Shown here in pieces: positions 5,706-63,464 of a stretch of 64,000 bases of DNA. Source of the DNA: Thermoanaerobaculia bacterium (lineage in GTDB: Bacteria > Acidobacteriota > Thermoanaerobaculia > Multivoradales > UBA5704); assembly GCA_049284515.1 (NCBI GenBank), contig JBAPYB010000030.1:15345-79344 (forward strand). Reading direction: 5' to 3'. The notes beneath the pieces are model-generated. The model did no database searches. It had not been told where the DNA came from and saw only the letters and a list, made by a program, of their open reading frames with translations. Both the position numbers and the translations under genes were made by a program. Positions within the stretch are counted from its first letter, which is position 1. Every line of letters begins with the position of its first letter.

Positions 5706-8076
<2,371 letters not shown>

Positions 8077-8080
<4 letters not shown>

Positions 8081-8553
8081 TGCGCACCTCCCCGCACGGC
8101 CTCGGCCGCCGTGAGCACGGCCTTGACGATGTTGTGATAGCCGGTGCAACGGCAGAGATTCCCTTCGAGGCCGTGGCGCACCTCGGTCTCGGTCGGGTTC
8201 GGGTTGCGCTGGATGAGCTCGGCGGAGCGCATCACCATGCCCGGCGTGCAGAAGCCGCACTGCAAGCCGTGACAGGTGTGAAAGGCCTCCTGCATCGGGT
8301 GCATCTTGCCGTTGGCCGCCAGCCCCTCGATCGTGGTGACCGCCGCGCCGTCAGCTTCCATAGCCAGCATGGCGCAGCTCTTCACCGACTTGCCGTCGAC
8401 CCAGACCGTGCAGGCGCCGCACTGGCTGGTATCGCAGCCCACGTGCGTGCCGGTGAGCCGCAGGCCCTCGCGCAGCAACTCGACGAGCAGCGTCCGCGGC
8501 TCCACGTCGGCAACGTGGCTTTTTCCATTGACTTTCAGGGTGATCGTGGCCAT
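8077..8553 (-). CDS. coxS: (2Fe-2S)-binding small subunit (CoxS-like)
   Basis: [11 protein letters not shown]... with the CGACTV and CGFCTPG cysteine motifs; SD GGGGAGG upstream. The ORF-track start at 8628 is an upstream extension. Confidence 0.85.
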
Positions 8554-8674
8554 GAACCTCCCCTCTCGGGCTTGCCCGTCGCTGGGCGCGTGGGTGGCCA
8601 TGGTATCGCCGGGGATTTGGCCGTGCAAGGGGGGGCCAGGGCTCTCCGATATAAACGCTCAGTTATTTCGGCGC

Positions 8675-8923
8675 TCACTCCGACGGGGGCTCAGCGCTGC
8701 ACGACGAAGCGAAAAACCTGAACACCACGGCGAGGAGGGCAAAGAACAGCCAGAGCGCCTGGCAGCCTGACTGAGCGTCCCTGAACCAGGGTCTCTGGAT
8801 GCCAAGACGCCCCTCCATGTAGATGATCGCCAACTCTCCACCCAGGGCAAGAAACAGCCCCACCAAGCAGACCACCGCGCACCAGATGTAGAACCTGCGG
8901 GAGCTGGGGCCGCCCAGGGGCAT
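8675..8923 (-). CDS. Small hydrophobic protein (82 aa, 2 predicted TM) upstream of coxS
   Basis: Strong SD AAGGGAGG 8 nt before the ATG; two hydrophobic helices. No family recognised. Confidence 0.5.
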   Translation of the reverse strand: MPLGGPSSRRFYIWCAVVCLVGLFLALGGELAIIYMEGRLGIQRPWFRDAQSGCQALWLFFALLAVVFRFFASSCSAEPPSE

Positions 8924-23713: not shown

Positions 23714-23953
23714 ATGACGCGGAACGCCGTTCTAGAAGAAGCTCTCAAGCTCTCCGTCAAGGAGCGCGCCGATGTAGCCGTGGAGTTGCTCTCCAGCCTC
23801 GACGATAAGGAATGGGAGGACCAAGAAGAGGTTGCAAGAGCCTGGGGCGCCGAGATCGAACGCCGGGCTCGCCGCGCTCTCTCCGGGGAATCGGCAGGAT
23901 CTCCCTGGGAAGACGTCAAGCAAAGGATTGAGGGCCGCCTGGAAAGAGCGTGA
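23714..23953 (+). CDS. Putative addiction-module antitoxin (TIGR02574-like)
   Basis: MTRNAVLEEALKLSVKERADVAVELLSSL...; no RelE/ParE-like ORF follows. Confidence 0.55.
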   Translation: MTRNAVLEEALKLSVKERADVAVELLSSLDDKEWEDQEEVARAWGAEIERRARRALSGESAGSPWEDVKQRIEGRLERA

Positions 23954-24722
23954 GCAAACCGCTGCATCCGGCCCAACAGGCCGGGAGAACGGAGCCAGGG
24001 CATCTAAGGCCGCAAGCCGCTGCCCTGGGTGGAGAGATGATTAAAATGGTGCGGCCTGAATGGCCGCGAGACCTTTCTTCCCGAGCTGGGTTTCGCGACC
24101 GTGCAGGCCGGCCTTGGTCATGCCAGTGGGCTGATCTTTGGCACCAAAGCAAAGCGACGTCTCCAGCGATTTCCTTACCGATGATCGCCTGACATGGTGC
24201 GCCAACGCGCTCACTAAATAATTTCCGTCGAGATTCGATCCAGCTTGAAGTCCTGTCTCCGTGCTGGTAAACAGCCAGTACGTCGTCCTCTTCAAGCGCC
24301 TCCCAGATCTTTTCAAGATCAGACCAGGCGACATGCTCTGGCTTCGCTTTCTTCGTGGGAGAGAGGCCAGTATCGGGGTCCAAGAATGCGATCAGCGGAC
24401 GCGGAGTGGCCTTCAATTCGGCCACAGTAGCTTCGACGTACTCGTCCCTCTTCTCAGGATCGAAGACGCCAGCCCTGACTTCGATGTTGATGCCGACCAC
24501 CTCCCCGAGGCGACGGATGCCCTGGAGATCCGAGAAATGTCTCCAAACTTCCTCGGCGAGGCTAAACGTCTCCTTCATATTCCCGACTATCAACTCCATC
24601 TTCTTGCCATCTCGTAGATAGGCGATCTGGAGGATTTGGAGGATCTTATAGGTCTTCGCGAGATGAATCAGACCGCCCCACTTCACTCGATCTCGGCGGT
24701 CGCCATACCAAAGGCCTCTCAT
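23916..24722 (-). CDS. Hypothetical protein in a roughly 550-bp low-GC patch; 3' part looks degenerate and may be a frameshifted or decaying gene
   Basis: GC is about 52% over 24170-24720 against about 67% in the flanks. Conserved-looking N-terminal 180 aa (…LIAFLDPDTGLSP…); the C-terminal 80 aa is Arg/Pro-rich junk that overlaps the convergent antitoxin gene. Confidence 0.4.
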   Translation of the reverse strand: MRGLWYGDRRDRVKWGGLIHLAKTYKILQILQIAYLRDGKKMELIVGNMKETFSLAEEVWRHFSDLQGIRRLGEVVGINIEVRAGVFDPEKRDEYVEATVAELKATPRPLIAFLDPDTGLSPTKKAKPEHVAWSDLEKIWEALEEDDVLAVYQHGDRTSSWIESRRKLFSERVGAPCQAIIGKEIAGDVALLWCQRSAHWHDQGRPARSRNPAREERSRGHSGRTILIISPPRAAACGLRCPGSVLPACWAGCSGLLTLFPGGPQSFA

Positions 24723-24739
24723 GGTATTCCTTTCTGGTC

Positions 24740-25219
24740 TCACGCCGGCGGCTTCAACATCTCGAACTCCTGATTGCTGAACGGCGGCGAGGTCGGGCGC
24801 TTCACGACGTTGAAACCGAAATTCGCAGCTTGATGACATTGATTGCAGGCCGCCGTCAACTTGTCGAAGGCGGCTTCGAAGCGAATCTTGTTGCGGGCTT
24901 CGACAGCGGCGTCGACTTCGGCCAGGGGGCCTTCAATGATCGTGGGGACCAGTTTCGACACGGGGATGTGGGAGCCCTCCAGCACGGGGTGGAGCTTCAC
25001 CACGTCTCCGAAGCCCTCCTTGAGCTCGTCCACCTCGTAGGCGGCGAGGCGCCAGTTTTCATTTTCTCCAGCGAACCAGAGCTTGGCGTGCCGTACCTGC
25101 TGGCCGGCCATCAGCTCTCCCAGGCCCGGCACGTAGCCGGCGTCCCGCGGCTTCGCGCAGCCCCAGGTCGTGATGACCACAATCAAAATCCAGGCAAGCC
25201 CCCATCTCCGCAGGATCAT
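24740..25219 (-). CDS. Secreted class II cytochrome c (cytochrome c'-like)
   Basis: N-terminal signal peptide and a single CNQCH heme-binding motif near the C-terminus; 159 aa. Confidence 0.6.
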   Translation of the reverse strand: MILRRWGLAWILIVVITTWGCAKPRDAGYVPGLGELMAGQQVRHAKLWFAGENENWRLAAYEVDELKEGFGDVVKLHPVLEGSHIPVSKLVPTIIEGPLAEVDAAVEARNKIRFEAAFDKLTAACNQCHQAANFGFNVVKRPTSPPFSNQEFEMLKPPA

Positions 25220-28813: not shown

Positions 28814-29335
28814 ATGTTCGCCGACCTCATTTCCGAGCCCAAACCCCTTTCTTTCCAGGAGAGCCAGGACGTCACCCCCGCAGCCTCGTTCCAGGAGATG
28901 CTCGGCAGCGCCCTCAAGATCGTCCGCAAGCACTATCCCGGCGCCCGCTTCCTCGAAGCGGACATCGACTATGAGCAGTTCGGCAGCGGCTGGCGGTTCG
29001 TCTTCGACGTGCCGGCCACCAGCCTCAGGGAGACGCAATCGACGGTGATCCTCTACAACGTCATGGGACAGTTCCAGATGCCGTTGCAGCTCGTCGAGGC
29101 TCCGTGGTCGGGCGATCAGCCCATTCCGCTCCCGCTCCCCGTCGGCGTCGAGGAAGCCGAAGAGCTGGCGCAGCAGGCGGGCAGGAACGGCGTCGTGACC
29201 AGCGCCAGCCTGCGCTGGGTGCTGTTCCCCGGCATCGAGGAGCCGCACTACATCCTCACCATCCCCGACCGCGACCTCCAGGTGTTCGTGGGGGCTTACA
29301 GCCGGCAGGTCAGGGCCATTCCGCTGACGGTATAG
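28814..29335 (+). CDS. Hypothetical protein
   Basis: SD GGGAGGAG before ATG (MFADLISEP...). No family recognised. Confidence 0.5.
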   Translation: MFADLISEPKPLSFQESQDVTPAASFQEMLGSALKIVRKHYPGARFLEADIDYEQFGSGWRFVFDVPATSLRETQSTVILYNVMGQFQMPLQLVEAPWSGDQPIPLPLPVGVEEAEELAQQAGRNGVVTSASLRWVLFPGIEEPHYILTIPDRDLQVFVGAYSRQVRAIPLTV

Positions 29336-30287
29336 CCCCCTCGGGCAGGACCCAGTCGGCGCGACCGATCTTCTCCCAGGCAAAGATGGGGATGAGATCG
29401 GCCGGCCGGCAGGGCTCGGGCCGGTCGAGCAGGCCCAGGGAGTGGGCCAGGTAACCGGTGACCGCCTCCGGGCTCGCTCCCTCTTCGCGCAGCGAGCGCA
29501 GGGTGAGCCCCTGATCGCGCTTCGACAGCTTCTCTCCCTGGGCATTCACCATCAGCGGCATGTGAGCGTAGGCCGGCGGCGAGCCGCCCAGGGCCCGGAT
29601 CAACTGGATCTGCCGCGCCGTCGAGGCGAGGAGGTCGGAGCCGCGCACCACGTCGTCGATTTCCATCGCGAGGTCGTCCACCACCACGGCCAATTGATAC
29701 GCGTAAAGTCCGTCGCGGCGCTTGAGCACGAAGTCCCCCACCGCCAGGTCCACTCGCTCGGTCATCGGTCCAAAAACCCGATCGGTGAACGAAACCTTTT
29801 CTTCGTCGACCCGGAAGCGAATCGCCGCATCCGGCCGCGCCATGCCGCACAACTGTTCGAACCAGTCCCGCTCCAGGCTCGCGGGCCGCAGCGACGCGGG
29901 GTACGGCGTCTCCTCGCCGCCGTGCGGAGCGGAGGCCACGGCCTGGAGATCCTTGCGTGAGAGCCGGCACGGGAAGAGCCGGCCGGCCGCAGCGAGCTTC
30001 TGGAGCGCCGCCTCGTAGAGCTCGCTCCGTTCGGATTGGACGTAAGGCGCATGGGGACCGCCGACGTCCGGCCCCTCGTCCCAATCGAGGCCCAGCCAGG
30101 CGAGATCCTCCATCTGAGCCGCCGCAAGCCCAGGAACCACCCGCGGCCCGTCGAGATCCTCCACCCGCCAGACGAACGTGCCCCCCCGGCTGCGCACCGA
30201 AAGCCAAGCCGCCAGCGCCGAGCGGGCGTTGCCGAGGTGGATCATCCCCGTCGGGGATGGGGCGTAGCGGCCACGGGGGGCAGACAC
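29310..30287 (-). CDS. gluQ: Glutamyl-Q tRNA(Asp) synthetase
   Basis: RGRYAPSPTGMIHLGN HIGH-class motif and KLSKR; 325 aa. Confidence 0.85.
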   Translation of the reverse strand: MSAPRGRYAPSPTGMIHLGNARSALAAWLSVRSRGGTFVWRVEDLDGPRVVPGLAAAQMEDLAWLGLDWDEGPDVGGPHAPYVQSERSELYEAALQKLAAAGRLFPCRLSRKDLQAVASAPHGGEETPYPASLRPASLERDWFEQLCGMARPDAAIRFRVDEEKVSFTDRVFGPMTERVDLAVGDFVLKRRDGLYAYQLAVVVDDLAMEIDDVVRGSDLLASTARQIQLIRALGGSPPAYAHMPLMVNAQGEKLSKRDQGLTLRSLREEGASPEAVTGYLAHSLGLLDRPEPCRPADLIPIFAWEKIGRADWVLPEGAIPSAEWP

Positions 30288-30288
30288 T

Positions 30289-30906
30289 TCAGAGCAGCGA
30301 CCGCAAGGCGCTGCGCAATTCGTCCACGAAATGCTTCAGCGAGGGTTGGTTCTTGCCGGCACGGTACAGGTCCATGGCCGCCACTAGATCGGGAGCGTAC
30401 TCCATCTCGTTGGTGAGGATCAGTTGGCCGGCATCCAGGATCGTCTTTCTCAGGAGTTGCTTGTAGAGGTGCCGCTCGCATTTTTCAGGGACAGCAGGAG
30501 TCGACACGCCAAGTACCTCTTGGATGGCCTGGGGATCAGCCATGCACCATTTTTCGACGTGGGGATCCGGGCAACCGATCACACAGCGGGCGAAAATCCG
30601 CGAGTCAATCGTATCTTCCAACTCGCGCCGGACTTGTGCCCAACCATTACAGTTCGCATCGATCATCAGTACCAGAAGGTCTGGAAGAGTCTGACCAGCG
30701 CGATGCTGTGAGGCCACCGCACGCTGCCAGAGCCTGAATTCCGTCAATGCCCGCCCGTGCCCGCCACGTCCACTGGGAGTCCTGAGCTCGAGGCGCAGAC
30801 CCAGATTGGCGGCCAATCGGCTGACGAGCGCCCGAGCGAACTGCTCGTGACCACTATCCTCGCAGTAGAGATCGATCCTCAGCCGGTCAGCCATCGAGCC
30901 ATCCAC
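30289..30906 (-). CDS. DUF4276-like protein with TOPRIM-like acidic motifs, partner of the upstream ABC ATPase
   Basis: IDLYCEDSGHE and LLVLMIDANCNG (E...DxD-like). Overlaps the ATPase gene by 20 nt; local GC about 58%. Confidence 0.6.
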   Translation of the reverse strand: MDGSMADRLRIDLYCEDSGHEQFARALVSRLAANLGLRLELRTPSGRGGHGRALTEFRLWQRAVASQHRAGQTLPDLLVLMIDANCNGWAQVRRELEDTIDSRIFARCVIGCPDPHVEKWCMADPQAIQEVLGVSTPAVPEKCERHLYKQLLRKTILDAGQLILTNEMEYAPDLVAAMDLYRAGKNQPSLKHFVDELRSALRSLL

Positions 30907-32164
30907 GCAGCAACATGGCTTCCACGAGTCCCGAGTCCTCCGGTCCCGTCAATGAGCTTTTTATCTCGGTATCCTCGAAAAGAGGACCAAGCGGTTGAAA
31001 CAGCTTCACCTCTGTCGCCCGCCCATGTTGAGAGCAGTGGAAAATCTTGATTTGGGCTGGATTCTCCAATGCACGTCTATACATGGCTGAGATCAAGGTG
31101 GGTGAATGAGTCGTCACGACCACCTGGTTGCGCCCTTGGTCGGCCATAGAAGAGAGAAGATTCGCAATCACCTCGATCCGCCGCGGATGCACTCCGTTTT
31201 CGGGCTCCTCAAAGGCAATCAATTCTCCTGGCCAGGGATTCGCAGCCAGGCAGCAGAGCGCAAGTACACGAAGCGTCCCTTCGGAGACAACGCGTGAGGA
31301 ATAGGGTGTCCCTTCCTGGCGAATGACAATATCTAGCGTGCCTCGCCGTGGGTCAAGATCCACGTCGAGGCCTTCGACCGTAGGAATGGCGGTCCTCAGC
31401 GCCCTGCCTATGGCACGGAAATACTTGCGATGAGCTTCGCTCGACTTTAAGCGATAGAGAAAAGGAGCGATCAACTCTCCGCGTGAGCCAATATCAGCGA
31501 CCTCCCGCGGCGGCTGTGGCTCACGCATACCGATTCGGGGATCGAGATAATAGGTCTGCCAAGCCGACAGCTCTGCACGCAGGCGATCTAAATCAGGATA
31601 CCGGTACTCCCCAGCGAACTGGAGGTTGGAGACCAGCGTGTGATTGAGACCAAGCGGCTCATGGCGAGGATGGCCTGATTCCCCAAGCTGGCGGACCACC
31701 AGGGAGTCTCCTGAACGCTCGATCCGCGGCTTCTGCTTAGGATTCAGATCTCGCTTCAACCGGACGAGAAACTCATCCGCTACCTCCAATGCTCCCGTCT
31801 TGGGCTGGATGCGGATGGTCGCCCGGTACCGAATGGGCTCGGAAGCGGCCTTTCTCGAAGGTCTTCCGGAAAACCGGGCTGGCTGGACCTCGGCTTCCAA
31901 GGTGAGCTCTGACTGATCTTGCCGAAGCAATCCCTCGAGACCACTCTCTGGAAGATTGAAGGCCTCCAGGGGATAACCCCGCAGGGGCGGCTCGAAGGCA
32001 GCCGCCAGGGTCTGTTCTGTGGCAAGACGCGAGAGCAGCAGAAGCGCCTCGAGAAGATTGCTCTTCCCCGCCGCATTCGGCCCCATCAGGACCACGAGCG
32101 GAGCAAGCTCGATATCGACATCGAGCAGCGACTTGAACCCTTGGACTCGGAATCGGCTTAGCAA
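30887..32164 (-). CDS. ABC-type AAA ATPase (AAA_15/AAA_21-like)
   Basis: Walker A GPNAAGKSN, signature SEGTLRVLAL, Walker B LIAFEEPENGVHP and H-loop TTHSP. Confidence 0.8.
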   Translation of the reverse strand: MLSRFRVQGFKSLLDVDIELAPLVVLMGPNAAGKSNLLEALLLLSRLATEQTLAAAFEPPLRGYPLEAFNLPESGLEGLLRQDQSELTLEAEVQPARFSGRPSRKAASEPIRYRATIRIQPKTGALEVADEFLVRLKRDLNPKQKPRIERSGDSLVVRQLGESGHPRHEPLGLNHTLVSNLQFAGEYRYPDLDRLRAELSAWQTYYLDPRIGMREPQPPREVADIGSRGELIAPFLYRLKSSEAHRKYFRAIGRALRTAIPTVEGLDVDLDPRRGTLDIVIRQEGTPYSSRVVSEGTLRVLALCCLAANPWPGELIAFEEPENGVHPRRIEVIANLLSSMADQGRNQVVVTTHSPTLISAMYRRALENPAQIKIFHCSQHGRATEVKLFQPLGPLFEDTEIKSSLTGPEDSGLVEAMLLRGWLDG

Positions 32165-32267
32165 GTTTATCCCTCAACTCGGCGTTCAACTACAGAAAAC
32201 CTACCACAGTCATAGATAGAGGGCTTCCTTTCGCCGCAGCTTCTCGTCGAAGCCGGCGTAGATCACG

Positions 32268-33107
32268 TCAAGCCATCACCGAAAGCATCCGCGCCACCGG
32301 CTCGCCCAGGGAGCGGTCGCCCGCGATCTCCATCCGCGCCAGCGCCTGCTCGGCGGTCAGTCCCTTGGTCATCCGCCGCCAGGCCGTATCTTGGTCCATG
32401 CGGACCCGGCAGTCCGGCTCTCCAGGCGCACCCTCGAAGAGCGACCAGGCCGGCCCCTCACGCACCAGCGTCCACTCGCCCCCAGCCTCGCCCGTGACCT
32501 CGAAGACGATGCGCATCCCCTCGCCTGCCCCGACCTCGCGGTAGACGTGAGGCAGGGCGCGCAGGAACGTATCGAGCACTGGGTGGAGCCACCGGCGGGC
32601 GGTGAGCGGCGGCGCCCCCACCGCATCGCGGATCTGCTGCTGGTGGTGCCAGAGCTCGGTGAGCTCGCGGGCCATGTCGAACCACAGGAGGGACGTCTCC
32701 TCTCCGGCCCAGGCCACCGAAATCATCGCCGGAGCGAACGGATCGAGCGTGGCCATGAATTCGGCCAACTGGCGGCCCGCCAAGTCGAGCAGATCGGTGA
32801 GCACCCGCGGGCTGAACCGCCGGGCGACCGCCACCCACTCCGCGTTCAACCGGTTGAGGAAGGCGACGATGTCGGCGTACCCGTCCAGGGGCCGGTCCGG
32901 CGGCGCCAGCCTCGCGCCGTCGCGCTGGGCCGAAAGCCGCCGGAGCTGAGTGTCCAGCATGTGGGCGGCCACGTCCTGGACCGTCCAGGCCCCGGCGACC
33001 GTGGGCCGGCGCCAGTCGTCCGGGGAGAGGCTGCGGAGGAGGGTGATCAGCTCCCCGTGGAGTCCTGGAAAGAGATCGGCGACGAGGATGGGCTGGATGG
33101 GTTCCAT
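32268..33107 (-). CDS. DinB/maleylpyruvate-isomerase-like (MDMPI_N, TIGR03083) protein
   Basis: N-terminal ...WTVQDVAAHM... motif; 279 aa. Confidence 0.7.
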   Translation of the reverse strand: MEPIQPILVADLFPGLHGELITLLRSLSPDDWRRPTVAGAWTVQDVAAHMLDTQLRRLSAQRDGARLAPPDRPLDGYADIVAFLNRLNAEWVAVARRFSPRVLTDLLDLAGRQLAEFMATLDPFAPAMISVAWAGEETSLLWFDMARELTELWHHQQQIRDAVGAPPLTARRWLHPVLDTFLRALPHVYREVGAGEGMRIVFEVTGEAGGEWTLVREGPAWSLFEGAPGEPDCRVRMDQDTAWRRMTKGLTAEQALARMEIAGDRSLGEPVARMLSVMA

Positions 33108-36597: not shown

Positions 36598-38634
<2,037 letters not shown>

Positions 38635-38699
38635 GAAATCTCCCTTTCCCTCCTTGAGAGCTTTTTTTCCAGCCTCAGGACGCCTCAAACCCAGGATTC

Positions 38700-38925
38700 C
38701 CTCTTTTCTCAGACTCCCGGGCGTTTTCTCAGGGCGGGAAGCGCTAAGACATTGTGACGGCCGTTTTCTCATTGTGCGACGGGTTTTCACTGTGCGAAAA
38801 CCGGAAAACACATTGTGAGAAGCCAAAACACATTGTGTACAGCGCTCAATCATTGAGAAAGCGCGAAACGCATTGTGAAAAGAGGCTCGCATGATGTACA
38901 GGCGGCTTCCTCATTGTTTCTCGCG
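38700..38925. repeat. Array of about 10 direct repeats (core CATTGTG / TTTTCTCA) phased at about 20 bp, in a lower-GC 3'-3' intergenic region
   Basis: CATTGTG-like cores begin at 38750, 38770, 38788, 38811, 38831, 38851, 38871, about 38890 and 38912. ttttctca cores occur at 38704, 38724 and 38764. AAACRCATTGTGA occurs three times at exact 20-bp spacing. Confidence 0.7.
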
Positions 38926-38994
38926 TTTTGGGGCTGGGAAAACTCCCCGGACGTCAGTCTCTGAAGAAGAAGTTTGGTAAGAAAGGGCCGCACC

Positions 38995-39837
38995 TCACTC
39001 CACCGCCCGCGGCGGCGCCTGCAGCCAGACGACGCCGATCACTCCGGCGAGGGCGAGCAGGCTCCCCACGATCTGGACCGGCGTTGGGCGGTCGCCCAGG
39101 AACACGGCTCCCAGGAGGAGGGAGAGCACCACCGTGAGCTGCATGAGGACTCCCGCCTGGAGGTTCGTCACCCAGCGGTAGGCCCAGGTCATGAGGAGCT
39201 GTGCCGCGGTCGAGCACAGGCCCACGCTGGCGAGGAGCAGCCACTCCCGGGGAGTCGGAGCCTTGAAGCTCGAATAGGTGAAGGGACCGGTCGCGAGCAG
39301 GCCGAAGAGGGTCAGGCTGCCATAGATCGACCACGAGCTCTCGGTGCGGCGGGCGGCGCGGATGGCCGCCACCGCCGCCCCGGTGAGCACCGCCGAGGTC
39401 ATTCCCGCGAGCTCCCAACGGCTGAAGCGCAGGAGGTCGCCGAGCCCTCGGCCACCGCCCGCGGCGAGCATCATGCCGATGAGCGCGAGAATCAGAGGGA
39501 GCACCAGCCGGCGGTCCACCTGCTCGCCGAGGAAGAAGGCCGCGAAAGTGACGCTGAACACCGGCGAGACGTAGTTCAACAGCGTCGCGATCCCCACCGG
39601 GATATGGGCGATGGCCGTAAAGTACAGGAGGATGGCCAGGCCGCCGAAAACTCCCCGGTAGATCAACAGGTCGACGCGCTGATAGGCGAGCGCCTGGCGC
39701 CGCAGCCGGGGTATGGCGAGGACCGGCACCGCCATCACGACGAAGCGCACAAAGGCCACCTCGGCGCCCGAAAGCCGCGCCGAGGCAAGCTTCGCCGCCA
39801 GCGCCATGAGGGCGAAGCAGACCGCGGAGGCGGCCAT
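38995..39837 (-). CDS. EamA/DMT-family transporter
   Basis: 10 TM segments in two EamA repeats. Start is uncertain: the ORF track uses GTG at 39900, while a strong SD AAGGGAGG sits in front of an out-of-frame ATG at 39873. Confidence 0.7.
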   Translation of the reverse strand: MAASAVCFALMALAAKLASARLSGAEVAFVRFVVMAVPVLAIPRLRRQALAYQRVDLLIYRGVFGGLAILLYFTAIAHIPVGIATLLNYVSPVFSVTFAAFFLGEQVDRRLVLPLILALIGMMLAAGGGRGLGDLLRFSRWELAGMTSAVLTGAAVAAIRAARRTESSWSIYGSLTLFGLLATGPFTYSSFKAPTPREWLLLASVGLCSTAAQLLMTWAYRWVTNLQAGVLMQLTVVLSLLLGAVFLGDRPTPVQIVGSLLALAGVIGVVWLQAPPRAVE

Positions 39838-47034: not shown

Positions 47035-47826
47035 TTACCTGGATCGCTCTGCAAGCAGAGCTCGCAGCCGTGCAAGCTCGGCCTCTGCCGCGTCCGCGCG
47101 CTGGCGTTCGTGCTCAGCCCTCTGGAATTGCGCCTTGGCCTGTTGGCGTTCAGCGTCGGCCCGCCGGCGCTCCTCCTCGGCTCGCTCCTCGTCCGTGGGT
47201 ATCAGGCTGCCGTCTGGACGGAAAAGCCGGACCCAGTCGCCCTTCCGCCGCTTCACCACTCCGTGCCAGAGGCCGAAGGAGACTCCGAGCTGTTCGCTCC
47301 AGAGCCGGCCGTCCTCATCGGGCTGGATCGGCCGGTAGAAGCGGTCCGCCAGACGCAGACCTTCCACCGTCCCCGCGTCCGGATCGCACAGGAAGTACTC
47401 CGCCGTGCGGAAGACGCGAGCGTAGAGGTCTCGCTTCTCGGTGCGGTCCTTGTTCGCGGTGGAAGGGGAGAGAAGCTCGACGATGACGTCCGGCAGCCGC
47501 CCGCCCTCCTCCCAGGAGATCCAGACCTTACGCTCGCGGTCCGGATCGACGCCGCCCACCCAGAACACGTCCGGTCCGCGGAAGGCCCGCCACGGCAATC
47601 CCTTCGTCATCTCCTCCGAAACCGCCCGCGCCTGCTCCAAGGAGAAATAGACGAACATGTTGCTCCCGACGTAGAAGTCGGTCCTGCCCTGCTCGGCCAT
47701 GGCTTGGCCAATCAGCTCGCTCAGAAGAGGGTGCTCCAAGGTATGCCACTCGGTCTCCAAGGGCTCTCCGTCGTCGTAGACGAGCTCGAAGGGTAGAGAC
47801 GCGAGCGCGGCGGCTGGCTGGCTCAT
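47035..47826 (-). CDS. Uma2-family (DUF820) endonuclease with a C-terminal Arg/Glu-rich coiled-coil tail
   Basis: MSQPAAALASLPFELVYDDGEPLE...PDVIVELLSPSTANKDRTEKRDLYARVFRTAEYFLCDPD is the PD-(D/E)xK Uma2 core. Confidence 0.75.
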   Translation of the reverse strand: MSQPAAALASLPFELVYDDGEPLETEWHTLEHPLLSELIGQAMAEQGRTDFYVGSNMFVYFSLEQARAVSEEMTKGLPWRAFRGPDVFWVGGVDPDRERKVWISWEEGGRLPDVIVELLSPSTANKDRTEKRDLYARVFRTAEYFLCDPDAGTVEGLRLADRFYRPIQPDEDGRLWSEQLGVSFGLWHGVVKRRKGDWVRLFRPDGSLIPTDEERAEEERRRADAERQQAKAQFQRAEHERQRADAAEAELARLRALLAERSR

Positions 47827-48248
47827 GGGGATGCTCCCTTGCGGAGTCGTTGTTTGCGAGGATCTTATTGCGCAGGGCCGGCAAAGGGAAGAGGGAGGCG
47901 AGCCCTGCGATCCTTCTCCTAGCCGACAGGATAGCACGGGAGGATTGTGGGAACGGCGGGAGAATTGGGGGGACGAGACATCCCGAAGTCGGCTCCATGG
48001 CTGAGGACCGAGAAGTAGATCACCCGGCAAAGTTGGATCACCATCTACGCCTTGTTCCCGTCACCCGGAAGACCCGGGCGTAGTGTCAGACCAGGATGGT
48101 CAGGTCAAGACCCTAGCTCCAGGCCGACCGAAGAGATTCCTCGGAGAACGTAGGAATGGCGACAGCGGGTGTGGAGGATGGGAAATCGTGTGCAGTGTGC
48201 GGGAATTGAGTCCAAGGCTGTAGAATCTCTCCAGAGGAGGCAAAAGAC

Positions 48249-48314
48249 ATGCCCACAGCCAAAGTCTTCCACAGCGGCAACAGCCAGGCCGTCCAACTAC
48301 CCAAAGCTGAATGA
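48249..48314 (+). pseudogene. Truncated AbrB/MazE-type antitoxin (vapB-like) N-terminus, 21 codons then stop
   Basis: SD GGAGG followed by MPTAKVFHSGNSQAVQLPKAE*. Low-GC foreign DNA begins immediately after it. Confidence 0.55.
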
Positions 48315-48466
48315 CTCGAAGCGACTATTCCATGACTACCATGCTGAATTACTTCTCCGTTCGAGCCATGAGCATCGCAAATCGATTCCATACCTGGAAG
48401 GCGCAGCGGTCCGGGCCGCCCTTCGCGGAGCCGCGCAATTCGCCGTTCGGTCGCCTCCGAAAGGCA

Positions 48467-51400
48467 ATGTTCGTTATTTTCCTAATCTCTTCTTCGGCAG
48501 CCCTCCAACAGATGGGCTATGCGCAGGAATGGAGGCCAACACTCGTCCAACAGTCGGGCCACAGCGCCTCCGTCAATGCTTTGGCCTTTACGCCAGATTC
48601 CCACTCGCTAATCTCTGCCAGCCACGACTTTAGTGTCAGGCTGTGGGATCTGAGAACTGGCCGCGAAGTTCGTACCCTTGGAAAGCATACTCGCGAGGTC
48701 CTCACTCTCGCTATGTGTCCTGATGGCCGATGCGTCTTGTCCGGCTCGGCCGATAAGACCCTCAAGCTATGGGAAGTACCTAGCGGGCGATTGCTTCACA
48801 CTTTCGTTGGCCATACATCTGCAATTCATAATGCTGTTTTCACGGCCGATGGAAAGCAAATAATCTCAGCCGCAGGAGCAGCGCCTGCTGAAGAAAGCAG
48901 GCAATCGGACTTCACTGCGAGGATTTGGGACGCCAATACTGGGCAATTACTCAGAAAACTTGAAGGGCATCAAAAAATTGTCGCCAGTGCTGCCCTGAGC
49001 CAAGACGGTCGACTAATCGCCACTGGGAGCTTCGACGCCACGATCAAGATTTGGAGTTTCGCAACAGGTAAGCTTATTCGCACCATCGATGGCTTCAGCC
49101 CGGGAGGCGTGAGAGCACAGTTTACGCATGACGGTTGCTGTCTTCTATCCGCGAGCAAAGGGCGCCTCGAATTATTAGACATAGGCACAGGCCAACATCT
49201 GAGAATCCTCGCAGAAGATCCATTGCCTTATCAGCTCGCGCTGAATCCCACGACGCCTCAAGTGGCTTACGCCACAAGAAACATACTGAAGATTCTAGAC
49301 CTCAGGACCAACCGTTTGGTAGCAACCTTTCCAGGGCCGGAAAAATTAATTGTCGAGTCCATTGCGTTCAGCCCTGACGGGAAAGAAGTGGCTTCAGGCT
49401 ACTCTAATGGTACTATCAAATTGTGGAATGTTCAGGACCGAAAGGAAATCTGGGAACTGCGCGGCTACACGTCGGAGGTGTCTAGTGTCGCAGTAAGCAG
49501 CGATGGGCACTGGATAGCATCTGGGAACGAGGACTCGTCAGTCAGAGTATGGGACACGGTTTCTGGTCTGATGAAATGGAAGCTCAAGAGCGAGAATCGT
49601 GACACTCGCGCGCTGATCTTTAGTCCCGACAATCGCTCGCTAGTGACGGCTGGCGGCGATCCTTCAGACAAGGTTGAGGACAGACCCATAGAGGTATGGG
49701 ACATTCGCACAGGCGCCAAGCTATTCTCTTTGGATTTCCATGTCGCCAGAGTGCAGTCCCTTGCCTTTAGCCCCAACGGAAAATGGCTGGCCTCCGCGGC
49801 AGGGACCTCCGCAAAAATCTGGGATATTGTGAGCCGCAAGGAGGTCCAGACTCTCAGCCCGGTAAATCAAATAGTAGGCTTCACCAAAGATAGCCAGCGA
49901 ATTGTAACTGGTGGCACGGACAACAACCTTACGCTTTGGGAGATTTCAACCGGAAGAGCAGTGAGTCGCTTACCTAACGTGGGGTGGGCTCGCTCAATGA
50001 GCCAGAATGGGCATTGGTTAGCCTCGCTGGGTTGGGATAAAGAGTTTAAACTTTTTAACCTCCAGGATGGGCGCACGTTTACTCTAAGCGGCCATCATGA
50101 CTTTGTCTACGACCTCGCCTTTAGTCCCGACAGCAAACTATTGGCTTCATGTAGTTTCGATGGCGGGATCAAACTCTGGGATGTTTATACTCATCGCGAC
50201 CTTCGCACACTCTCAGGACACACATCGTGGGTATCTTCAATCAAGTTTAGCTCTGATGGTCGGTTACTATTCTCAGTTAGTCACGACGGCAGCCTGCGAA
50301 TCTGGGATGTAAGCAAGGGAAAACAACTCGTTTCCGTCATGGCGATGAGAGATACCGAGGACTGGCTCGCAGTCGCCCCCGACGGACTATTCGACGGCAC
50401 AGCCGAAGCGATGCAACGCGTTGCTTGGCGTTTAGGCCAGACTGATACTACGGTATCCCTAGAAAGCTTCTTCAGCGATTTCTTCCGACCCGGCTTAATC
50501 GGCGAGATTATAGCCGGCGAGCAACCGAAAGCGCAGGTTGATATCGCGACTCTCGTTCAAGTACCTGGGTTGCGACATATGCTGAGCCAGAACAGAGCAC
50601 ATCTTGAGATTCGCGCCGGCAAGGCCATTGTCTGCTTCGAGGAGCTCCCTGGTGTCGCGCTCGGCATTCCAGCCGGAGAGAGTGATCTACCCAGCGAGTC
50701 GCGGGGATTTAAAATAGTCCCAGACGACATTAGCTGTAAATACAGGAAGGAACTTGCGGATACGGGCGACGTACAAACCTTGGTGAAGAGCCTTCAGAGC
50801 TGGAAGCCGACTCCATTCGTGACGCAGTGGGACGGAAAGCTGTCGATCACCACGCGATCCACACTGCATATTCTGAGCATCGGAGTCGCGCAGTATCCTC
50901 GCGCATCCGGTCTTGATCCGCTTCCCTATGCGGTAAAGAGTGCTCAAGCCGTAGAGAAATTTTTCGTCCAACAAAAATCACTAGACCGGCGGGCGTATGC
51001 CCGGATTCGGGTGTGGCCGGGCTTGTATGACCAAGAAGCGAGCCGTGATTCCATCCGGAGAACTCTGGAGAAGATGTCTCAGGTAGTGGATGAGGACGAC
51101 GTGGTTGTTTTATATTTTGGAGGACATGGGCTGGTGACCCCTGAGGAGGAGATGTTTTACTTCATACCAAGCGATGGGCGAGTGAAGGAGATCCGAAACA
51201 CCGGACTTAACACAGCTAGCCTTGCTGAGGCATTACGGAGGATGCCTGCTCGGCGCATTGTACTGATTCTTGATACCTGTCAGTCGGGCGCGGCTGTGGA
51301 GGCCTTGAGTAAGATCGGCGAAGCAAAGGCGCGCCTTGAACAGCGACGTATGCACGATTCCTTGGGACCAGCGAACAGCCGGTCCGGAATAGGTGTTCAC

Positions 51401-51634
51401 GTAATCGCAGCAACGCTTCCCCTGGCCTATGCGGTGCAACTCCACTCAGACCAAAGCGCGCTGGTTGCGACACTACTTGGCTCGTTAAGTCAGCGATCTG
51501 GGCCTGTAACTGTGAGCGAGGTAATCCGAATTGTAAGACAACGCCTACCTGAGGCGTCTGAAAAGGAAGTGGGATTTCGCCAGGTACCGCTAGCCGACTC
51601 CGTTGGCTTGGATTTTCCACTAAGTTCAGAGTGA
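48467..51634 (+). CDS. WD40-repeat / caspase-like (peptidase C14) fusion protein with a predicted N-terminal signal or anchor
   Basis: About 14 WD40 repeats (e.g. GHTSAIHNAVFTADG, SGSADKTLKLWEV, LRIWDVSKGK). C-terminal C14 domain with VVVLYFGGHGL (His) and IVLILDTCQSGAAV (Cys). MFVIFLISSSAALQQMGYAQEW leader; the alternative ATG at 48311 adds 52 aa. Local GC about 50%. Confidence 0.8.
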   Translation: MFVIFLISSSAALQQMGYAQEWRPTLVQQSGHSASVNALAFTPDSHSLISASHDFSVRLWDLRTGREVRTLGKHTREVLTLAMCPDGRCVLSGSADKTLKLWEVPSGRLLHTFVGHTSAIHNAVFTADGKQIISAAGAAPAEESRQSDFTARIWDANTGQLLRKLEGHQKIVASAALSQDGRLIATGSFDATIKIWSFATGKLIRTIDGFSPGGVRAQFTHDGCCLLSASKGRLELLDIGTGQHLRILAEDPLPYQLALNPTTPQVAYATRNILKILDLRTNRLVATFPGPEKLIVESIAFSPDGKEVASGYSNGTIKLWNVQDRKEIWELRGYTSEVSSVAVSSDGHWIASGNEDSSVRVWDTVSGLMKWKLKSENRDTRALIFSPDNRSLVTAGGDPSDKVEDRPIEVWDIRTGAKLFSLDFHVARVQSLAFSPNGKWLASAAGTSAKIWDIVSRKEVQTLSPVNQIVGFTKDSQRIVTGGTDNNLTLWEISTGRAVSRLPNVGWARSMSQNGHWLASLGWDKEFKLFNLQDGRTFTLSGHHDFVYDLAFSPDSKLLASCSFDGGIKLWDVYTHRDLRTLSGHTSWVSSIKFSSDGRLLFSVSHDGSLRIWDVSKGKQLVSVMAMRDTEDWLAVAPDGLFDGTAEAMQRVAWRLGQTDTTVSLESFFSDFFRPGLIGEIIAGEQPKAQVDIATLVQVPGLRHMLSQNRAHLEIRAGKAIVCFEELPGVALGIPAGESDLPSESRGFKIVPDDISCKYRKELADTGDVQTLVKSLQSWKPTPFVTQWDGKLSITTRSTLHILSIGVAQYPRASGLDPLPYAVKSAQAVEKFFVQQKSLDRRAYARIRVWPGLYDQEASRDSIRRTLEKMSQVVDEDDVVVLYFGGHGLVTPEEEMFYFIPSDGRVKEIRNTGLNTASLAEALRRMPARRIVLILDTCQSGAAVEALSKIGEAKARLEQRRMHDSLGPANSRSGIGVHVIAATLPLAYAVQLHSDQSALVATLLGSLSQRSGPVTVSEVIRIVRQRLPEASEKEVGFRQVPLADSVGLDFPLSSE

Positions 51635-51699
51635 ACGGCGGCTTCACTTGATCGCTAGCCTATGTTACACTTCAGCCCCTGATGCGACAAGGAGATTGC

Positions 51700-52467
51700 A
51701 TGTCCACTAAAGCCCAAGTTGTCCAGGCCGTTATAGGAATAGTAGTCGTCCTAGTCCTAGTCGTCGCGGCAATCGGTGGCGCCGACCCTCAGACCGGCCT
51801 TGGAACGGCCACAGGGACGAGTAACGTTCAAGTGATCCGAGTCGTTAAGGTCCTACCCAACAGTGATTCAGCCTACTCTATCGAATATAGCTTCTACTTT
51901 CCCGGGCGAGATTTCGTCCATATCAAAAATCTCGGCATCGTCCCCGGGCGAGGGAGGTTTCACTACATAACCCATGAGCGCGAACTCGATTTTCGTGACG
52001 TCGCCAGTGACGACATCCTCCAGCGTGTGCCGTTCTCAGAAACAGTTATCGCGGCCGGAGAGCCTCCTTCAAGCGTAATACCCCGGGAATCGGAGTTCCC
52101 TCCAGAGTTCCGCTCCTTCCCTTGGAGTTCTGCTAGTTCCTTGCAGGAGCGCGCCAATACTGTCCTCAATAAGTATTTTCGCTATTGGCCGCGAGAATTT
52201 GACAAGAAGATTTATTTGACAACAACTTTTACCCCCTTAGAGTTGCGAAAACTTCCGCCCGAAGTTCTTGGACAGGTATCTATATTGCTTTCTTTTCCCT
52301 ATGACACCACGGATCGCGGCTTTTCGTTCCACGTTCAGTCGATTGTGCGTGAAGGCCGAACTCATTCAGATGATTTACGGCAGACTAAGGACGCGACCAT
52401 CATAGCTACCGCAAATCAACTCGTTGACCAACTTGTAAATGAGATAAGGAGTGGCCTAAATCGATGA
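51700..52467 (+). CDS. Membrane-anchored hypothetical protein (N-terminal TM, about 220-aa extracytoplasmic domain)
   Basis: SD AAGGAG 6 nt before the ATG; hydrophobic stretch VIGIVVVLVLVVAAIGG. No family recognised. Same low-GC island. Confidence 0.65.
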   Translation: MSTKAQVVQAVIGIVVVLVLVVAAIGGADPQTGLGTATGTSNVQVIRVVKVLPNSDSAYSIEYSFYFPGRDFVHIKNLGIVPGRGRFHYITHERELDFRDVASDDILQRVPFSETVIAAGEPPSSVIPRESEFPPEFRSFPWSSASSLQERANTVLNKYFRYWPREFDKKIYLTTTFTPLELRKLPPEVLGQVSILLSFPYDTTDRGFSFHVQSIVREGRTHSDDLRQTKDATIIATANQLVDQLVNEIRSGLNR

Positions 52468-52877
52468 CCACAAGGCGCGTGCAGACTGCTTTGCTCTTTG
52501 TTTTCGCCGGCTCCTTCGTTGTGCAAGTAACGGCGTTTTTCGCTGTCAGTCTCAGTATGTGGCCAGAGGATCTCCGAAAGATCCTGACAACCTTGTTCGC
52601 GGTATACTCTATCCCCTTGGCAGTCATAATTGGTGGACTGTTCGCGCAGCCGAAGAAGCAATCTAAAGGGCCTGTCGCCGGGTTTTTGGCCTGGTCTGCG
52701 ATTCTGTTGTCCATAGTATGGAACTCGCTGTTTCTGTGGAGATCGGTCTCTTTCAGCGTCGCTATCCGCGACTCACCTAGCGATGTCATTGACTTTATGA
52801 ACTCGGTTTCAATGGCCGCCTCATTCCTAGTCGCGGGACTCCTAGCCTTCTTTTTTGCTAGAAAGGAGAGCCCGTAA
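52464..52877 (+). CDS. Small integral membrane protein (4 predicted TM)
   Basis: ATG overlaps the upstream stop (ATGA coupling); four hydrophobic helices; low GC. Confidence 0.6.
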   Translation: MTTRRVQTALLFVFAGSFVVQVTAFFAVSLSMWPEDLRKILTTLFAVYSIPLAVIIGGLFAQPKKQSKGPVAGFLAWSAILLSIVWNSLFLWRSVSFSVAIRDSPSDVIDFMNSVSMAASFLVAGLLAFFFARKESP

Positions 52878-53283
52878 TAGGGACTTCCTTCTCTTGTCTT
52901 CTCTGGCGGCGGGCCCGCAGGACGAGTCCCAAAGTCCCGCGTAGACGGAGGCCAAGAGTCTCTGCACACCTCCGGCCCTCGAGATCGTCGATGATCGCAA
53001 GACAGCCCGGGTGGGACAGCGCCCAGGCGATCACCGAAGACTCGCCCGGCCCGAGGTCCCAGCCCAAGACCTCTCCCGGAATACTGGCTGCCTCAACCTG
53101 ACGCAGCCATGGAGTCTCAGCGAGCGCACAAGCCGCAGGATCGGAGGAACCGCGAGCCGCGACCTCGGCGGCGACGGCCCTCGGGATCAACACCTCGGGA
53201 GGTGCGAGTTGGAAAAGATGGAGGAACTGGGTACGGGCGAGATAGATGAGCGGAGAGGCGTTGACGACCGCCGTCTCACTCAT
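52858..53283 (-). CDS. DUF3368 PIN-like toxin of a UPF0175/DUF3368 type II TA pair
   Basis: MSETAVVNASPLIYLARTQFLHLF...; overlaps the antitoxin by 8 nt. Confidence 0.65.
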   Translation of the reverse strand: MSETAVVNASPLIYLARTQFLHLFQLAPPEVLIPRAVAAEVAARGSSDPAACALAETPWLRQVEAASIPGEVLGWDLGPGESSVIAWALSHPGCLAIIDDLEGRRCAETLGLRLRGTLGLVLRARRQRRQEKEVPITGSPF

Positions 53284-60780: not shown

Positions 60781-62076
60781 CTACGCGACAGGCACTTTGT
60801 CTGCACTGAGAAACGCCTCGACAGCACCGGCGAGATCCTCCGCCCGGAGGAAGCGCACGCGCGTCGAGCCCTCCGCGGTCTCGGGAAACGTCCTGCGATT
60901 GACGATCACGAGCTCTTCGGGCTGGTAGGCGTCGACGAAGCTCCGGGCTGAGCGGCTCAAGATCCCGCGGCTGTCCCCGGCCTTGACCTCGCAGGCCAAG
61001 AGCCGGCCCTGGTGCTCCACCACGAAGTCCACCTCCGCTCCCGACTTGCTTCGCCAGGTAGAAAGTCCATCGAGAAGGGGGTGGACTGTCTTGGCCAACT
61101 CGGTGAAGATGAGGTTTTCCAAGAGCGCTCCCCGATCGGGCCGGTCCGCGGCGTCCTGAAATCCCCCGAAGAGCTGATTGCGGATGCCGTTGTCCAGAAG
61201 GAACACCTTGCGGGAGCTGGTGATCTCCGCACGCCTGCCGCCGACGAACGGCCGGACCATGCGAATGAGATGCGTCTCTTCGAGGAGCCGGCAGTAGTCG
61301 GCCACCGTGTCGTTGCTGACGTTGCTCAGGGCAGCCCAATCCGAAAGATTGACCAGGTTGCCGATCTGGCTCGCGGCGAGCTCCAGGATCTTGCGCAGGG
61401 CCGCCGTGTGGCGGATGCGGAAACGATCCGAGGCATCGCGGACCACGAACGCCTCGACCAGGGACGCCAGCTCCCGCCGCGGCTCGTCCGACGTCAACAC
61501 GGTCGGATATCCGCCGTAGATCATCATCCTTTCCACGAGCTGTGACAGGCCCTCTTCTCGCGCCAGGGGGCTGCCGTCCGTGAACGCCGCGCCAGCCTCG
61601 GAGAGCGACAAGGGCAGGAGCAGATGGCGTTGCGCCCGCCCGGCCAGCGACTCGCGGGTCGCGGACTCCAGGTCGAACGACGAGCTGCCGGTGGCATAGA
61701 TCCGTAGGCCGGTCCGGCGGTCAACGAGCCCCTTGAGGAACAGGCCGGCCTCTGGCAACAGCGCCCGAGCCCCGCCGGCCGACTCCGCCACGTCGGCGAG
61801 AAAGCTGGCGGGAGACGAGAGCCACTCGCGCATCGAGGGCTCCTCGCAGTTGACGTACAGGACGGGCTCCGCCGCCTCGGCGAGCGTCTTCCAGATCAGA
61901 GTCGACTTCCCGGCCTGCCGTGGCCCCACCACGAGCACGACCCGGTGGTCCGCGACGAGCCGCAAGCGCCGCGGGAGGTAGCTTTCCGGCAGGAAACGCT
62001 GGAACCAGGCCTGGAGATCATCCCCGCGCAGCCAGGGGTTCTCAGCCAGAACGACGCGCCGGAGTTGAGGGTCCAT
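60781..62076 (-). CDS. AAA ATPase with C-terminal DUF4143
   Basis: Walker A GPRQAGKST; typical AAA_14 + DUF4143 architecture. Confidence 0.75.
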   Translation of the reverse strand: MDPQLRRVVLAENPWLRGDDLQAWFQRFLPESYLPRRLRLVADHRVVLVVGPRQAGKSTLIWKTLAEAAEPVLYVNCEEPSMREWLSSPASFLADVAESAGGARALLPEAGLFLKGLVDRRTGLRIYATGSSSFDLESATRESLAGRAQRHLLLPLSLSEAGAAFTDGSPLAREEGLSQLVERMMIYGGYPTVLTSDEPRRELASLVEAFVVRDASDRFRIRHTAALRKILELAASQIGNLVNLSDWAALSNVSNDTVADYCRLLEETHLIRMVRPFVGGRRAEITSSRKVFLLDNGIRNQLFGGFQDAADRPDRGALLENLIFTELAKTVHPLLDGLSTWRSKSGAEVDFVVEHQGRLLACEVKAGDSRGILSRSARSFVDAYQPEELVIVNRRTFPETAEGSTRVRFLRAEDLAGAVEAFLSADKVPVA

Positions 62077-62089
62077 GGGTCTCTACCAG

Positions 62090-62144
62090 AAATCAGCAGA
62101 GTTCGTTGCTCTTCCTGGCAGAAAGTAGCAGGGTTCGTTGCGGA
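62090..62144. promoter_or_regulatory. Two 22-bp direct repeats (AGAAAnnAGCAGRGTTCGTTGC) immediately upstream of the DUF4143 ATPase gene
   Basis: agaaatcagcagagttcgttgc and agaaagtagcagggttcgttgc, 32 bp apart. Confidence 0.3.
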
Positions 62145-62219
62145 CGGCAAGCCAGGACTGGCACCACCCCTTGATGCACAAGTGCCCCAGGCTCGCCGCA
62201 TGGTCAATGGGCGAGGTGG

Positions 62220-63455: not shown

Positions 63456-63464
63456 GCCAACCCT

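Follow-up and report, generated by a model that had tools for sequence, protein, structure and literature searches.

A 64,000-nt window of a Thermoanaerobaculia bacterium genome (Acidobacteriota; assembly GCA_049284515.1, contig JBAPYB010000030.1, positions 15,345 to 79,344 of the forward strand) harbors a cassette of two co-oriented genes, which encode an ATP-binding cassette (ABC) ATPase and a small DUF4276 protein and lie between a DinB/MDMPI-like gene and gluQ. The pair is best classified as a divergent representative of the catalogued candidate type HEC-01 (Hma-embedded candidate 1; PADLOC-DB v2), not as a new kind of system. An earlier note, made from the letters alone, had described open reading frames (ORFs) of 425 and 205 aa between gluQ and a DinB-like gene, contrasted a GC content of about 58% with about 67% in the flanks, and likened the pair to split OLD, PARIS or AbiL systems. 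Both ORFs are present, the peptides IDLYCEDSGHE and LMIDANCNG are found in the translation, and the flanking genes have the corresponding Pfam matches (tRNA-synt_1c, 6e-49; MDMPI_N, 1e-13, with DinB_2 weak). The GC content is 0.58 in the ATPase gene and 0.60 in the small gene versus 0.64-0.71 in the four nearest flanking genes, and GC at third codon positions (GC3) is 0.62 and 0.69 versus 0.84-0.90 in these four genes and 0.79-0.91 in all seven neighbors measured. The likeness that had been drawn was also correct, its precise name being the PADLOC candidate HEC-01 (ABC ATPase plus TOPRIM-like protein).

Both ORFs are real genes and not chance ORFs, because they have hundreds of homologs and ratios of nonsynonymous to synonymous substitution (dN/dS) of 0.05-0.09. 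When the window is compared with locus L037, its closest relative that carries the pair, dN and dS are 0.064 and 1.20 for the ATPase gene and 0.096 and 1.12 for the small gene, and both genes are under strong purifying selection (dN/dS 0.05 and 0.09). The ATPase is identical to P0270, recorded at NCBI as 'AAA family ATPase' of a Thermoanaerobaculia bacterium and encoded on a contig of 97 kb. The exact small protein was not found in a collection of 5.8 billion proteins, where its best match is 83% identical; since the adjoining ATPase is present there at 100%, the small gene is probably unannotated in the source metagenome-assembled genome (MAG).

The larger gene encodes an ABC ATPase of the AAA_21/AAA_15 type, an assignment already proposed from the letters and one on which the Pfam matches (AAA_21, 1e-28; AAA_15, 7e-20), the PDB sequence-profile matches (class 2 OLD protein 6P74 at 4.7e-13, then PtuA and AriA) and the Foldseek searches agree. 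Walker A (G28PNAAGKS35), a signature-like motif (S294EGT297), Walker B (E319EPE322) and the H-loop (H353) are invariant in 27 homologs, and these four motifs together with the ABC head fold place the protein in the SMC/Rad50/OLD-like clade. The full ABC motif set that had been claimed thus stands for four of its elements, but the Q-loop is not assignable with certainty, Q82 being the invariant Gln in the 27 homologs. The protein carries a beta-rich insert at approximately residues 85-170, and its AlphaFold2 model (predicted local distance difference test score, pLDDT, 81.6) contains no Rad50/SMC coiled-coil. Foldseek places PtuA of Septu and retron I-A nearest to this model, followed by Rad50, SMC and RecN (E 1e-13 to 1e-11, probability 1.00), at template-modeling (TM) scores of about 0.45-0.5. 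In PADLOC, whose matches are given here as model scores with PADLOC's own thresholds not applied, the best model is HEC-01A PDLC04184 (4.4e-62, 208.6 bits). HEC-01A models account for seven of the nine best matches, including the top five, and PDC-M07A, mad3, AriA, NsnB, AbiLi, Old and GajA score far behind them.

The small protein belongs to DUF4276, as had been suggested, with 38.0 bits (2.7e-9) against a Pfam gathering cut-off of 30.2. Its PADLOC matches are to HEC-01B models only and are weak (best 2.4e-5, 22 bits). Among 53 diverse relatives, DUF4276 is matched by 47 and HEC-01B by 27, and isolated members match mad4, AriB, DUF4435 and RloB weakly. The ORF of 205 aa, described as overlapping the ATPase gene by 20 nt, does exist, but its start does not hold: translation almost certainly begins at ATG 30894, giving 201 aa and an 8-nt overlap, because every aligned homolog (23/23 in alignment A1) begins at the Met that corresponds to residue 5 of the longer ORF.

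The AlphaFold2 model of the small protein (pLDDT 88.4, predicted TM score 0.85) has the order β1-α1-β2-α2-β3-α3-β4 and then a bundle of helices. In a set of 132 representatives from clustering at 50% identity (residues in the numbering of the 205-aa ORF), E16, D17, D83-x-N85, E118, W120, D124 and K149 are essentially invariant, with E16 retained in 129/132 and D83 in 132/132. E16 and D17 lie directly after β1, D83-x-N85 after β3, and E118 and W120 after β4. TOPRIM proteins have a catalytic Glu after β1, a DxD motif after β3 and the sheet order 2-1-3-4, and the beta-alpha order and acidic placement predicted for the small protein are compatible with this fold. Of the acidic motifs of the E...DxD type that had been noticed, E16 and D83 are at the expected places, but the second Asp of DxD is replaced by Asn in 119/132 representatives and retained in 13/132. 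These DxD members (DADC, DCDC), which make up about 10% of the family, otherwise align end to end with the rest. In addition, the best match of the small protein in the viral structure library (BFVD, searched with Foldseek) is an RloB-like viral protein, aligned over its full length at a borderline E of 1.2e-3 and a TM score of 0.49. DUF4276 and RloB have been placed in the TOPRIM superfamily (PMC12065111), and HEC-01B has been compared to the metal site of BpOLD (Payne et al., bioRxiv 10.1101/2024.01.29.577857). The predicted topology, the motif placement, the borderline RloB-like match and these two papers are together compatible with a TOPRIM assignment.

Cysteines form a further pattern in this protein. 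C86 and C143 are each present in 98/132 representatives and co-occur across the set, and the 24 closest homologs all have C15, C86, C112 and C143. On the counts of C15 (44/132) and C112 (69/132) beside those of C86 and C143, a Cys4 metal or Fe-S site was rejected as a family feature. The D-x-N motif, the co-varying C86/C143 and the frequent H20/H116 may reflect an altered metal coordination.

The two genes form a stable unit. The earlier note had staked its reading on their co-occurrence in other genomes, and in all twelve contexts examined (the window and loci L001, L004, L011, L033, L035 and L037-L042) the small gene directly follows the ATPase gene on the same strand. The 8-nt overlap is identical in 9/9 other loci with both genes called, indicating that translation of the small gene is likely coupled to that of the ATPase gene. 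A natural fusion, P0198 (602 aa), joins an N-terminal DUF4276 domain (residues 7-116 or beyond) to an AAA_21/AAA_15/SMC_N ABC ATPase (approximately residues 196-501), an order reversed relative to OLD and GajA. In 9/12 contexts, whose flanks are otherwise unrelated, the ATPase start is preceded at a distance of 35-55 nt by an extended -10-like motif, TGGTAnnTT (TGnTAnnnT), and in several of them, e.g., L011, L037 and the window, a Shine-Dalgarno (SD)-like GAGG lies close to that start. A promoter thus seems to form part of the mobile unit. A generic scan for sigma-70 promoters and terminators detected neither a full consensus promoter at this position nor any other relevant signal around the cassette. 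Across the contexts examined, no third gene was found to be conserved as a partner. Table 1 lists the features of the locus.

Table 1. Features of the cassette, its flanks and a second low-GC tract (positions in the window).
Feature	Position	Strand	Details
HEC-01A-type ABC ATPase gene	30887..32164	-	425 aa, TTG start
HEC-01B-type DUF4276 gene	30289..30894	-	201 aa from ATG 30894 (almost certain start); longest ORF 30289..30906, GTG 30906, 205 aa
Start/stop overlap of the pair, 8 nt	30887..30894	-	ATGGCTGA, read from sequence
Upstream motif, putative promoter	32198..32208	-	cTGTGGTAGGTT, 35-45 nt upstream of ATPase start
SD-like GAGGG, putative ribosome-binding site	32171-32175	-	upstream of ATPase start
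Insert missing from empty junctions, ~1.99 kb	30279..32265	-	junction alignments versus L006-L010
gluQ flank (glutamyl-Q tRNA(Asp) synthetase-like)	29310..30287	-	325 aa; Pfam tRNA-synt_1c 6e-49; context, outside the system
DinB/MDMPI_N-family flank	32268..33107	-	Pfam MDMPI_N 1.2e-13, DinB_2 weak; context, outside the system
ORFs of the 47750-53000 tract	48311..51634; 47035..48030; 51682..52467	+; -; +	

Comparison with relatives delimits the insert. In the closest ones (L006-L010, gluQ 84-90% identical), the pair is missing and the DinB-like gene abuts gluQ, its stop codon overlapping the TTG start of gluQ (GCTTGACG). Homology between the window and these empty sites ends after the DinB stop (TTGACG) and restarts at CCCCG(T/C)GGCCGC within gluQ, so that the insert of approximately 1.99 kb consists of 103 nt of upstream spacer, the two genes and the three codons with which gluQ now begins. 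The GTG start of gluQ in the window is located 1 nt past the stop of the small gene, and its N-terminus reads MSAPRGRY versus MTQSPRGRY in the relatives. gluQ is probably co-transcribed with the cassette, from the cassette instead of from the DinB-like gene, and is perhaps translationally coupled to it.

The pair is present in 2/22 Thermoanaerobaculia-type gluQ loci, namely the window's type and L011. At the equivalent DinB-gluQ junction, L021 (4827-6986) encodes a 719-aa Ser/Thr kinase with TPR repeats, while gluQ is abutted by an amino-acid permease gene in L018 and L022 and by a gene of the metallo-beta-lactamase fold in L017. Judged from these sequences, Thermoanaerobaculia have a variable hotspot here whose fixed boundary is the 5' edge of gluQ. 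Further occupied loci were reached through the ATPase. Of these, L037 (88% identical) matches the window in its order of DinB, pair and gluQ, again with 1 nt from the small-gene stop to the gluQ start, and L038 and L039 (80% identical) have other upstream genes and differing spacers of approximately 100 nt before gluQ. The cassette thus lies immediately 5' of gluQ in five loci, with at least three different junction architectures. In L039, a long-read MAG contig, the small gene (7259-7808) and gluQ (7934-8879) are each split into two frames, which would be either a decaying cassette copy (pseudogene) or the product of homopolymer assembly errors.

Regarding the mode of insertion, no tRNA or Rfam match was found in the window, no integrase or transposase adjoins the insert, and its ends carry no target-site duplication and no terminal direct or inverted repeats. 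An integron-like cassette was rejected, since 1 nt before gluQ leaves no space for attC. The simplest idea is gain and loss by homologous recombination through the conserved flanks.

The insert does not appear to have arrived recently. In a neighbor-joining gluQ tree, occupied and empty loci are interspersed, and the tree of the gluQ-linked ATPases, with the window and L037 grouped versus (L038, (L011, L039)), roughly tracks the gluQ clades. The protein sequences of the pair (79-88%) have diverged to an extent similar to that of gluQ (82-86%). The GC3 deficit recurs in every host context, e.g., 0.73-0.75 versus 0.95 in L001 and 0.54-0.69 versus 0.89 in L002. In view of this recurrent deficit and of the tracking of gluQ clades by the ATPase tree, the low GC content was rejected as a sign of recent acquisition. 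Because the deficit is found in all hosts and the pair has co-diverged with gluQ, the sequences argue for an old presence/absence polymorphism and not a recent import, probably maintained by recombination through conserved flanks. Of the small acquired defense islet that had been envisaged, the acquisition is supported by the empty junctions in the closest relatives, although it does not look recent, and the defense function is weighed below. Between the window and L037, the pair has a dS of 1.1-1.2, which exceeds by a factor of 2-3.6 that of the flanking DinB, permease, Calx-beta and gluQ genes (0.33-0.62), with similar dN. The excess could mean that the alleles are older than the host split, that they were exchanged, or that dS is inflated by weak codon bias.

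Less similar copies (identity of up to 71% for the small protein and, where measured, of 58-65% for the ATPase) occupy quite different locations, including a lepA/PilZ interval and sites beside PAP2, MacB efflux and WD40 genes. Two copies lie in defense neighborhoods, one in a toxin-antitoxin (TA)/AbiE island and the other with SAVED, an M78 regulator and an Eco57I-type enzyme.

The likeness to HEC-01 extends beyond model scores to organization, as both consist of a co-oriented ABC ATPase gene followed by a DUF4276/TOPRIM-like gene of approximately 200 aa, and the ATPase has the beta-rich Insert 1. Autonomous HEC-01 outside Hma loci was expected by Payne et al. (10.1101/2024.01.29.577857), and the window pair fits this expectation. 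However, its B protein represents a divergent clade (22 bits at best) in which D-x-N-C replaces DxD, and the pair is located outside Hma, at a gluQ-proximal chromosomal hotspot.

Several characterized systems share parts of this architecture. PARIS likewise consists of a split ABC ATPase (AAA_15/21) and a separate TOPRIM-family effector, the ATPase acting there as a sensor or scaffold from which the nuclease is released on triggering. The window ATPase matches AriA models at 5.6e-28 and AriA in the PDB at 3e-4, whereas HEC-01A fits far better. In addition, AriB is a DUF4435 protein of approximately 35 kDa, whereas neither DUF4435 nor AriB is matched by the small protein of the window, and each of these models was matched by 1/53 relatives (E 0.02 and 9e-4, respectively). 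Sequence analysis of the window pair yielded no evidence of PARIS-type tRNA cleavage or of an Ocr trigger. OLD and the Gabija protein GajA also combine an ABC ATPase with a TOPRIM metal-dependent nuclease, the window ATPase is nearest to 6P74, and the fusion P0198 occurs in the family. However, the window domains are on two genes, with no match to Toprim_Old (PF20469) and no GajB/UvrD partner, and the Old and GajA models match the ATPase part only.

In MADS, Menshen, AbiL and RloA-RloB, the partner of an AAA_21-type ATPase is a TOPRIM-superfamily protein, either DUF4276 or RloB, and here too the likeness is partial. MAD3 is the top NCBIfam match of the ATPase, at 133 bits versus a cut-off of 420, whereas MAD4 gives an E of 0.17 and the locus has no methyltransferase or other mad genes. 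The ATPase matches NsnB of Menshen at 7e-24, but the NsnA/NsnC(DUF4276) architecture is absent from the locus, and it matches AbiLi at 5.7e-20 over part of the model, but the small protein has no AbiLii match. For RloA-RloB, the best structural match of the small protein is RloB-like, but no RloB hidden Markov model is matched and no type I restriction-modification system is adjacent. Septu and retron I-A provide the closest solved ATPase fold, PtuA (9n69, 9e90, 8eea; E about 1e-13, at TM scores of about 0.45-0.5 and 12-14% identity), within a two-gene unit of ATPase and nuclease, but PtuB is an HNH nuclease and not TOPRIM-like.

Against this background, the favored reading, held at a probability of roughly 0.72, is that the HEC-01-type pair is an ATP-driven sensor controlling a metal-dependent nuclease in phage defense. 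On the model of OLD, Gabija, PARIS and Septu, the sensor or scaffold would be the ATPase and the effector the DUF4276 protein; it is from such analogies that we infer complex formation, trigger, substrate, nuclease activity and defense phenotype. The A and B proteins would assemble into a complex, likely a stoichiometric one because of the translational coupling and the natural fusion. Through its beta-rich insert, the ATPase may sense a sign of infection, for instance a protein of the phage or nucleic acid of aberrant structure, and ATP binding or hydrolysis would then license or release B. The acidic pocket of B (E16, D17, D83-x-N85, E118 and D124) is predicted to bind a divalent metal, and B would cleave nucleic acid, i.e., DNA or possibly tRNA. 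As a result, phage replication would be stopped or the infected cell arrested, by degradation of the invader DNA or by abortive infection.

Experimental results on HEC-01 diverge. A cold-seep study (10.1101/2024.09.26.614923) reports that one representative made E. coli B resistant to one or more of the phages T4, T5 and T7, whereas the representative tested by Payne et al. (10.1101/2024.01.29.577857) gave no protection against any phage, which weighs against the defense reading. Several other points weigh in the same direction. The HEC-01B scores of the small protein are weak (22 bits), and an automated PADLOC run might miss the system. The TOPRIM-like fold predicted in the earlier note agrees with the element order and motif placement of the model, but a Foldseek search against the PDB retrieved no TOPRIM protein in the top 50, returning instead generic three-layer alpha/beta, flavodoxin-like folds (best E 6e-3). 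Profile searches of PDB sequences with the small protein gave no significant match, and hhalign of the family profile (A6) with a single P2 Old TOPRIM sequence returned an uninformative probability of 0.1. The homolog search for building an OLD-TOPRIM profile yielded 5 fragments only. The D-x-N motif in 90% of the clade could change or weaken metal binding. Finally, tblastn of the small protein in phage and plasmid collections found no homolog, and the immediate neighbors in the window (DinB, gluQ, permease, GNAT) are housekeeping or metabolic and not defense genes.

The same motif underlies an alternative in which the small protein is not a nuclease. Its D-x-N site would then be a regulatory, ligand-binding or adaptor module, and the pair would bind or sequester a target ATP-dependently or recruit an effector. 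Asn at position 85 in 119/132 representatives versus Asp in 13/132, the co-occurrence of C86 and C143, for which H20/H116 are also cited as co-varying, the failure to retrieve a TOPRIM nuclease structurally and a weak, insignificant resemblance to receiver domains would all fit such a role. However, the near-invariance of E16, D17, D83, E118 and D124 is the pattern of a working metal site, Asn can ligate Mg or Mn, DxD and DxN members align end to end, and the contexts share no third conserved gene that could act as the partner, making this alternative unlikely. Restraint of a nuclease by its ATPase could also serve the pair itself, as in a selfish, toxin-antitoxin-like addiction module in which loss is costly and defense incidental. 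Clean empty sites, common in close relatives, show that loss is tolerated, tblastn of the small protein gave no sign of carriage on plasmids or phages, and the architecture fits a sensor-effector defense system, of which one HEC-01 member gave phage protection. These observations render addiction quite improbable, even though Pfam names AAA_21 a 'putative AbiEii toxin, Type IV TA system', AriA of PARIS is deposited in the PDB as 'AriA antitoxin', dense TA clusters adjoin the pair in L033/L034, and the pair is a solitary two-gene islet in many housekeeping contexts.

A role in DNA repair or chromosome maintenance, with a RecF/Rad50/RecN-like ATPase and a TOPRIM nuclease that is not immune in function, would account for the resemblance of the ATPase to Rad50, SMC, RecN and RecF heads in structure and sequence, the metabolic neighbors in the window and the lack of defense in the assay of Payne et al. 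It would sit poorly with the patchy distribution of the pair (2/22 Thermoanaerobaculia gluQ loci), atypical codon usage in every host, many unrelated insertion contexts, the lack of a Rad50/SMC coiled-coil and best family models that are defense-derived, and is regarded as very improbable. The position of the cassette raises a more specific possibility. GluQ-RS is the glutamyl-queuosine modifier of tRNA(Asp), and the gluQ-linked clade might be a PARIS-like tRNA-targeting system whose D-x-N-C TOPRIM variant is tied to the co-transcribed GluQ-RS, for example with self tRNA being marked or shielded by the modification, or with the nuclease surveying the modification. The five loci immediately 5' of gluQ, with three or more junction architectures and a 1-nt gap in the window and L037, speak for this link, whereas gluQ is absent from seven other contexts and, in most relatives, is retained with no pair beside it, so the link is considered scarcely probable.

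HEC-01 ranks among the more abundant candidate defense types in environmental genomes, and its activity is contested. The locus provides a well-delimited example, with exact insertion boundaries, an empty-site comparison, a putative promoter of its own, purifying selection and an A-B fusion in the family, and the natural D-x-N variant of a TOPRIM-like metal site offers a handle for mechanistic mutagenesis. It also illustrates that cassettes of this kind may keep a low GC content over long times as a property of the family, without any recent transfer behind it. The catalogue is thereby refined, and the current picture of ABC-ATPase/TOPRIM immunity is unchanged.

Other low-GC tracts occur elsewhere in the window. 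Dips to 0.55-0.58 are found at 23750-25000, 38500-39250 and 62000-64000, the first of which holds a 307-aa ORF (23916..24839, reverse strand) with no Pfam or PADLOC match. A second, larger tract at 47750-53000 reaches a minimum GC of 0.50 versus a window mean of 0.65. It encodes a 261-aa ORF without a family match, a Uma2-family putative restriction-endonuclease-like protein (Pfam 5e-21; PADLOC PDC-S03 5e-8) and, at 48311..51634, a WD40-repeat protein of 1107 aa that carries a caspase-like domain at its C-terminus (residues 852-1000; PADLOC 'caspase' 3e-13), and this tract may be another conflict or defense locus.

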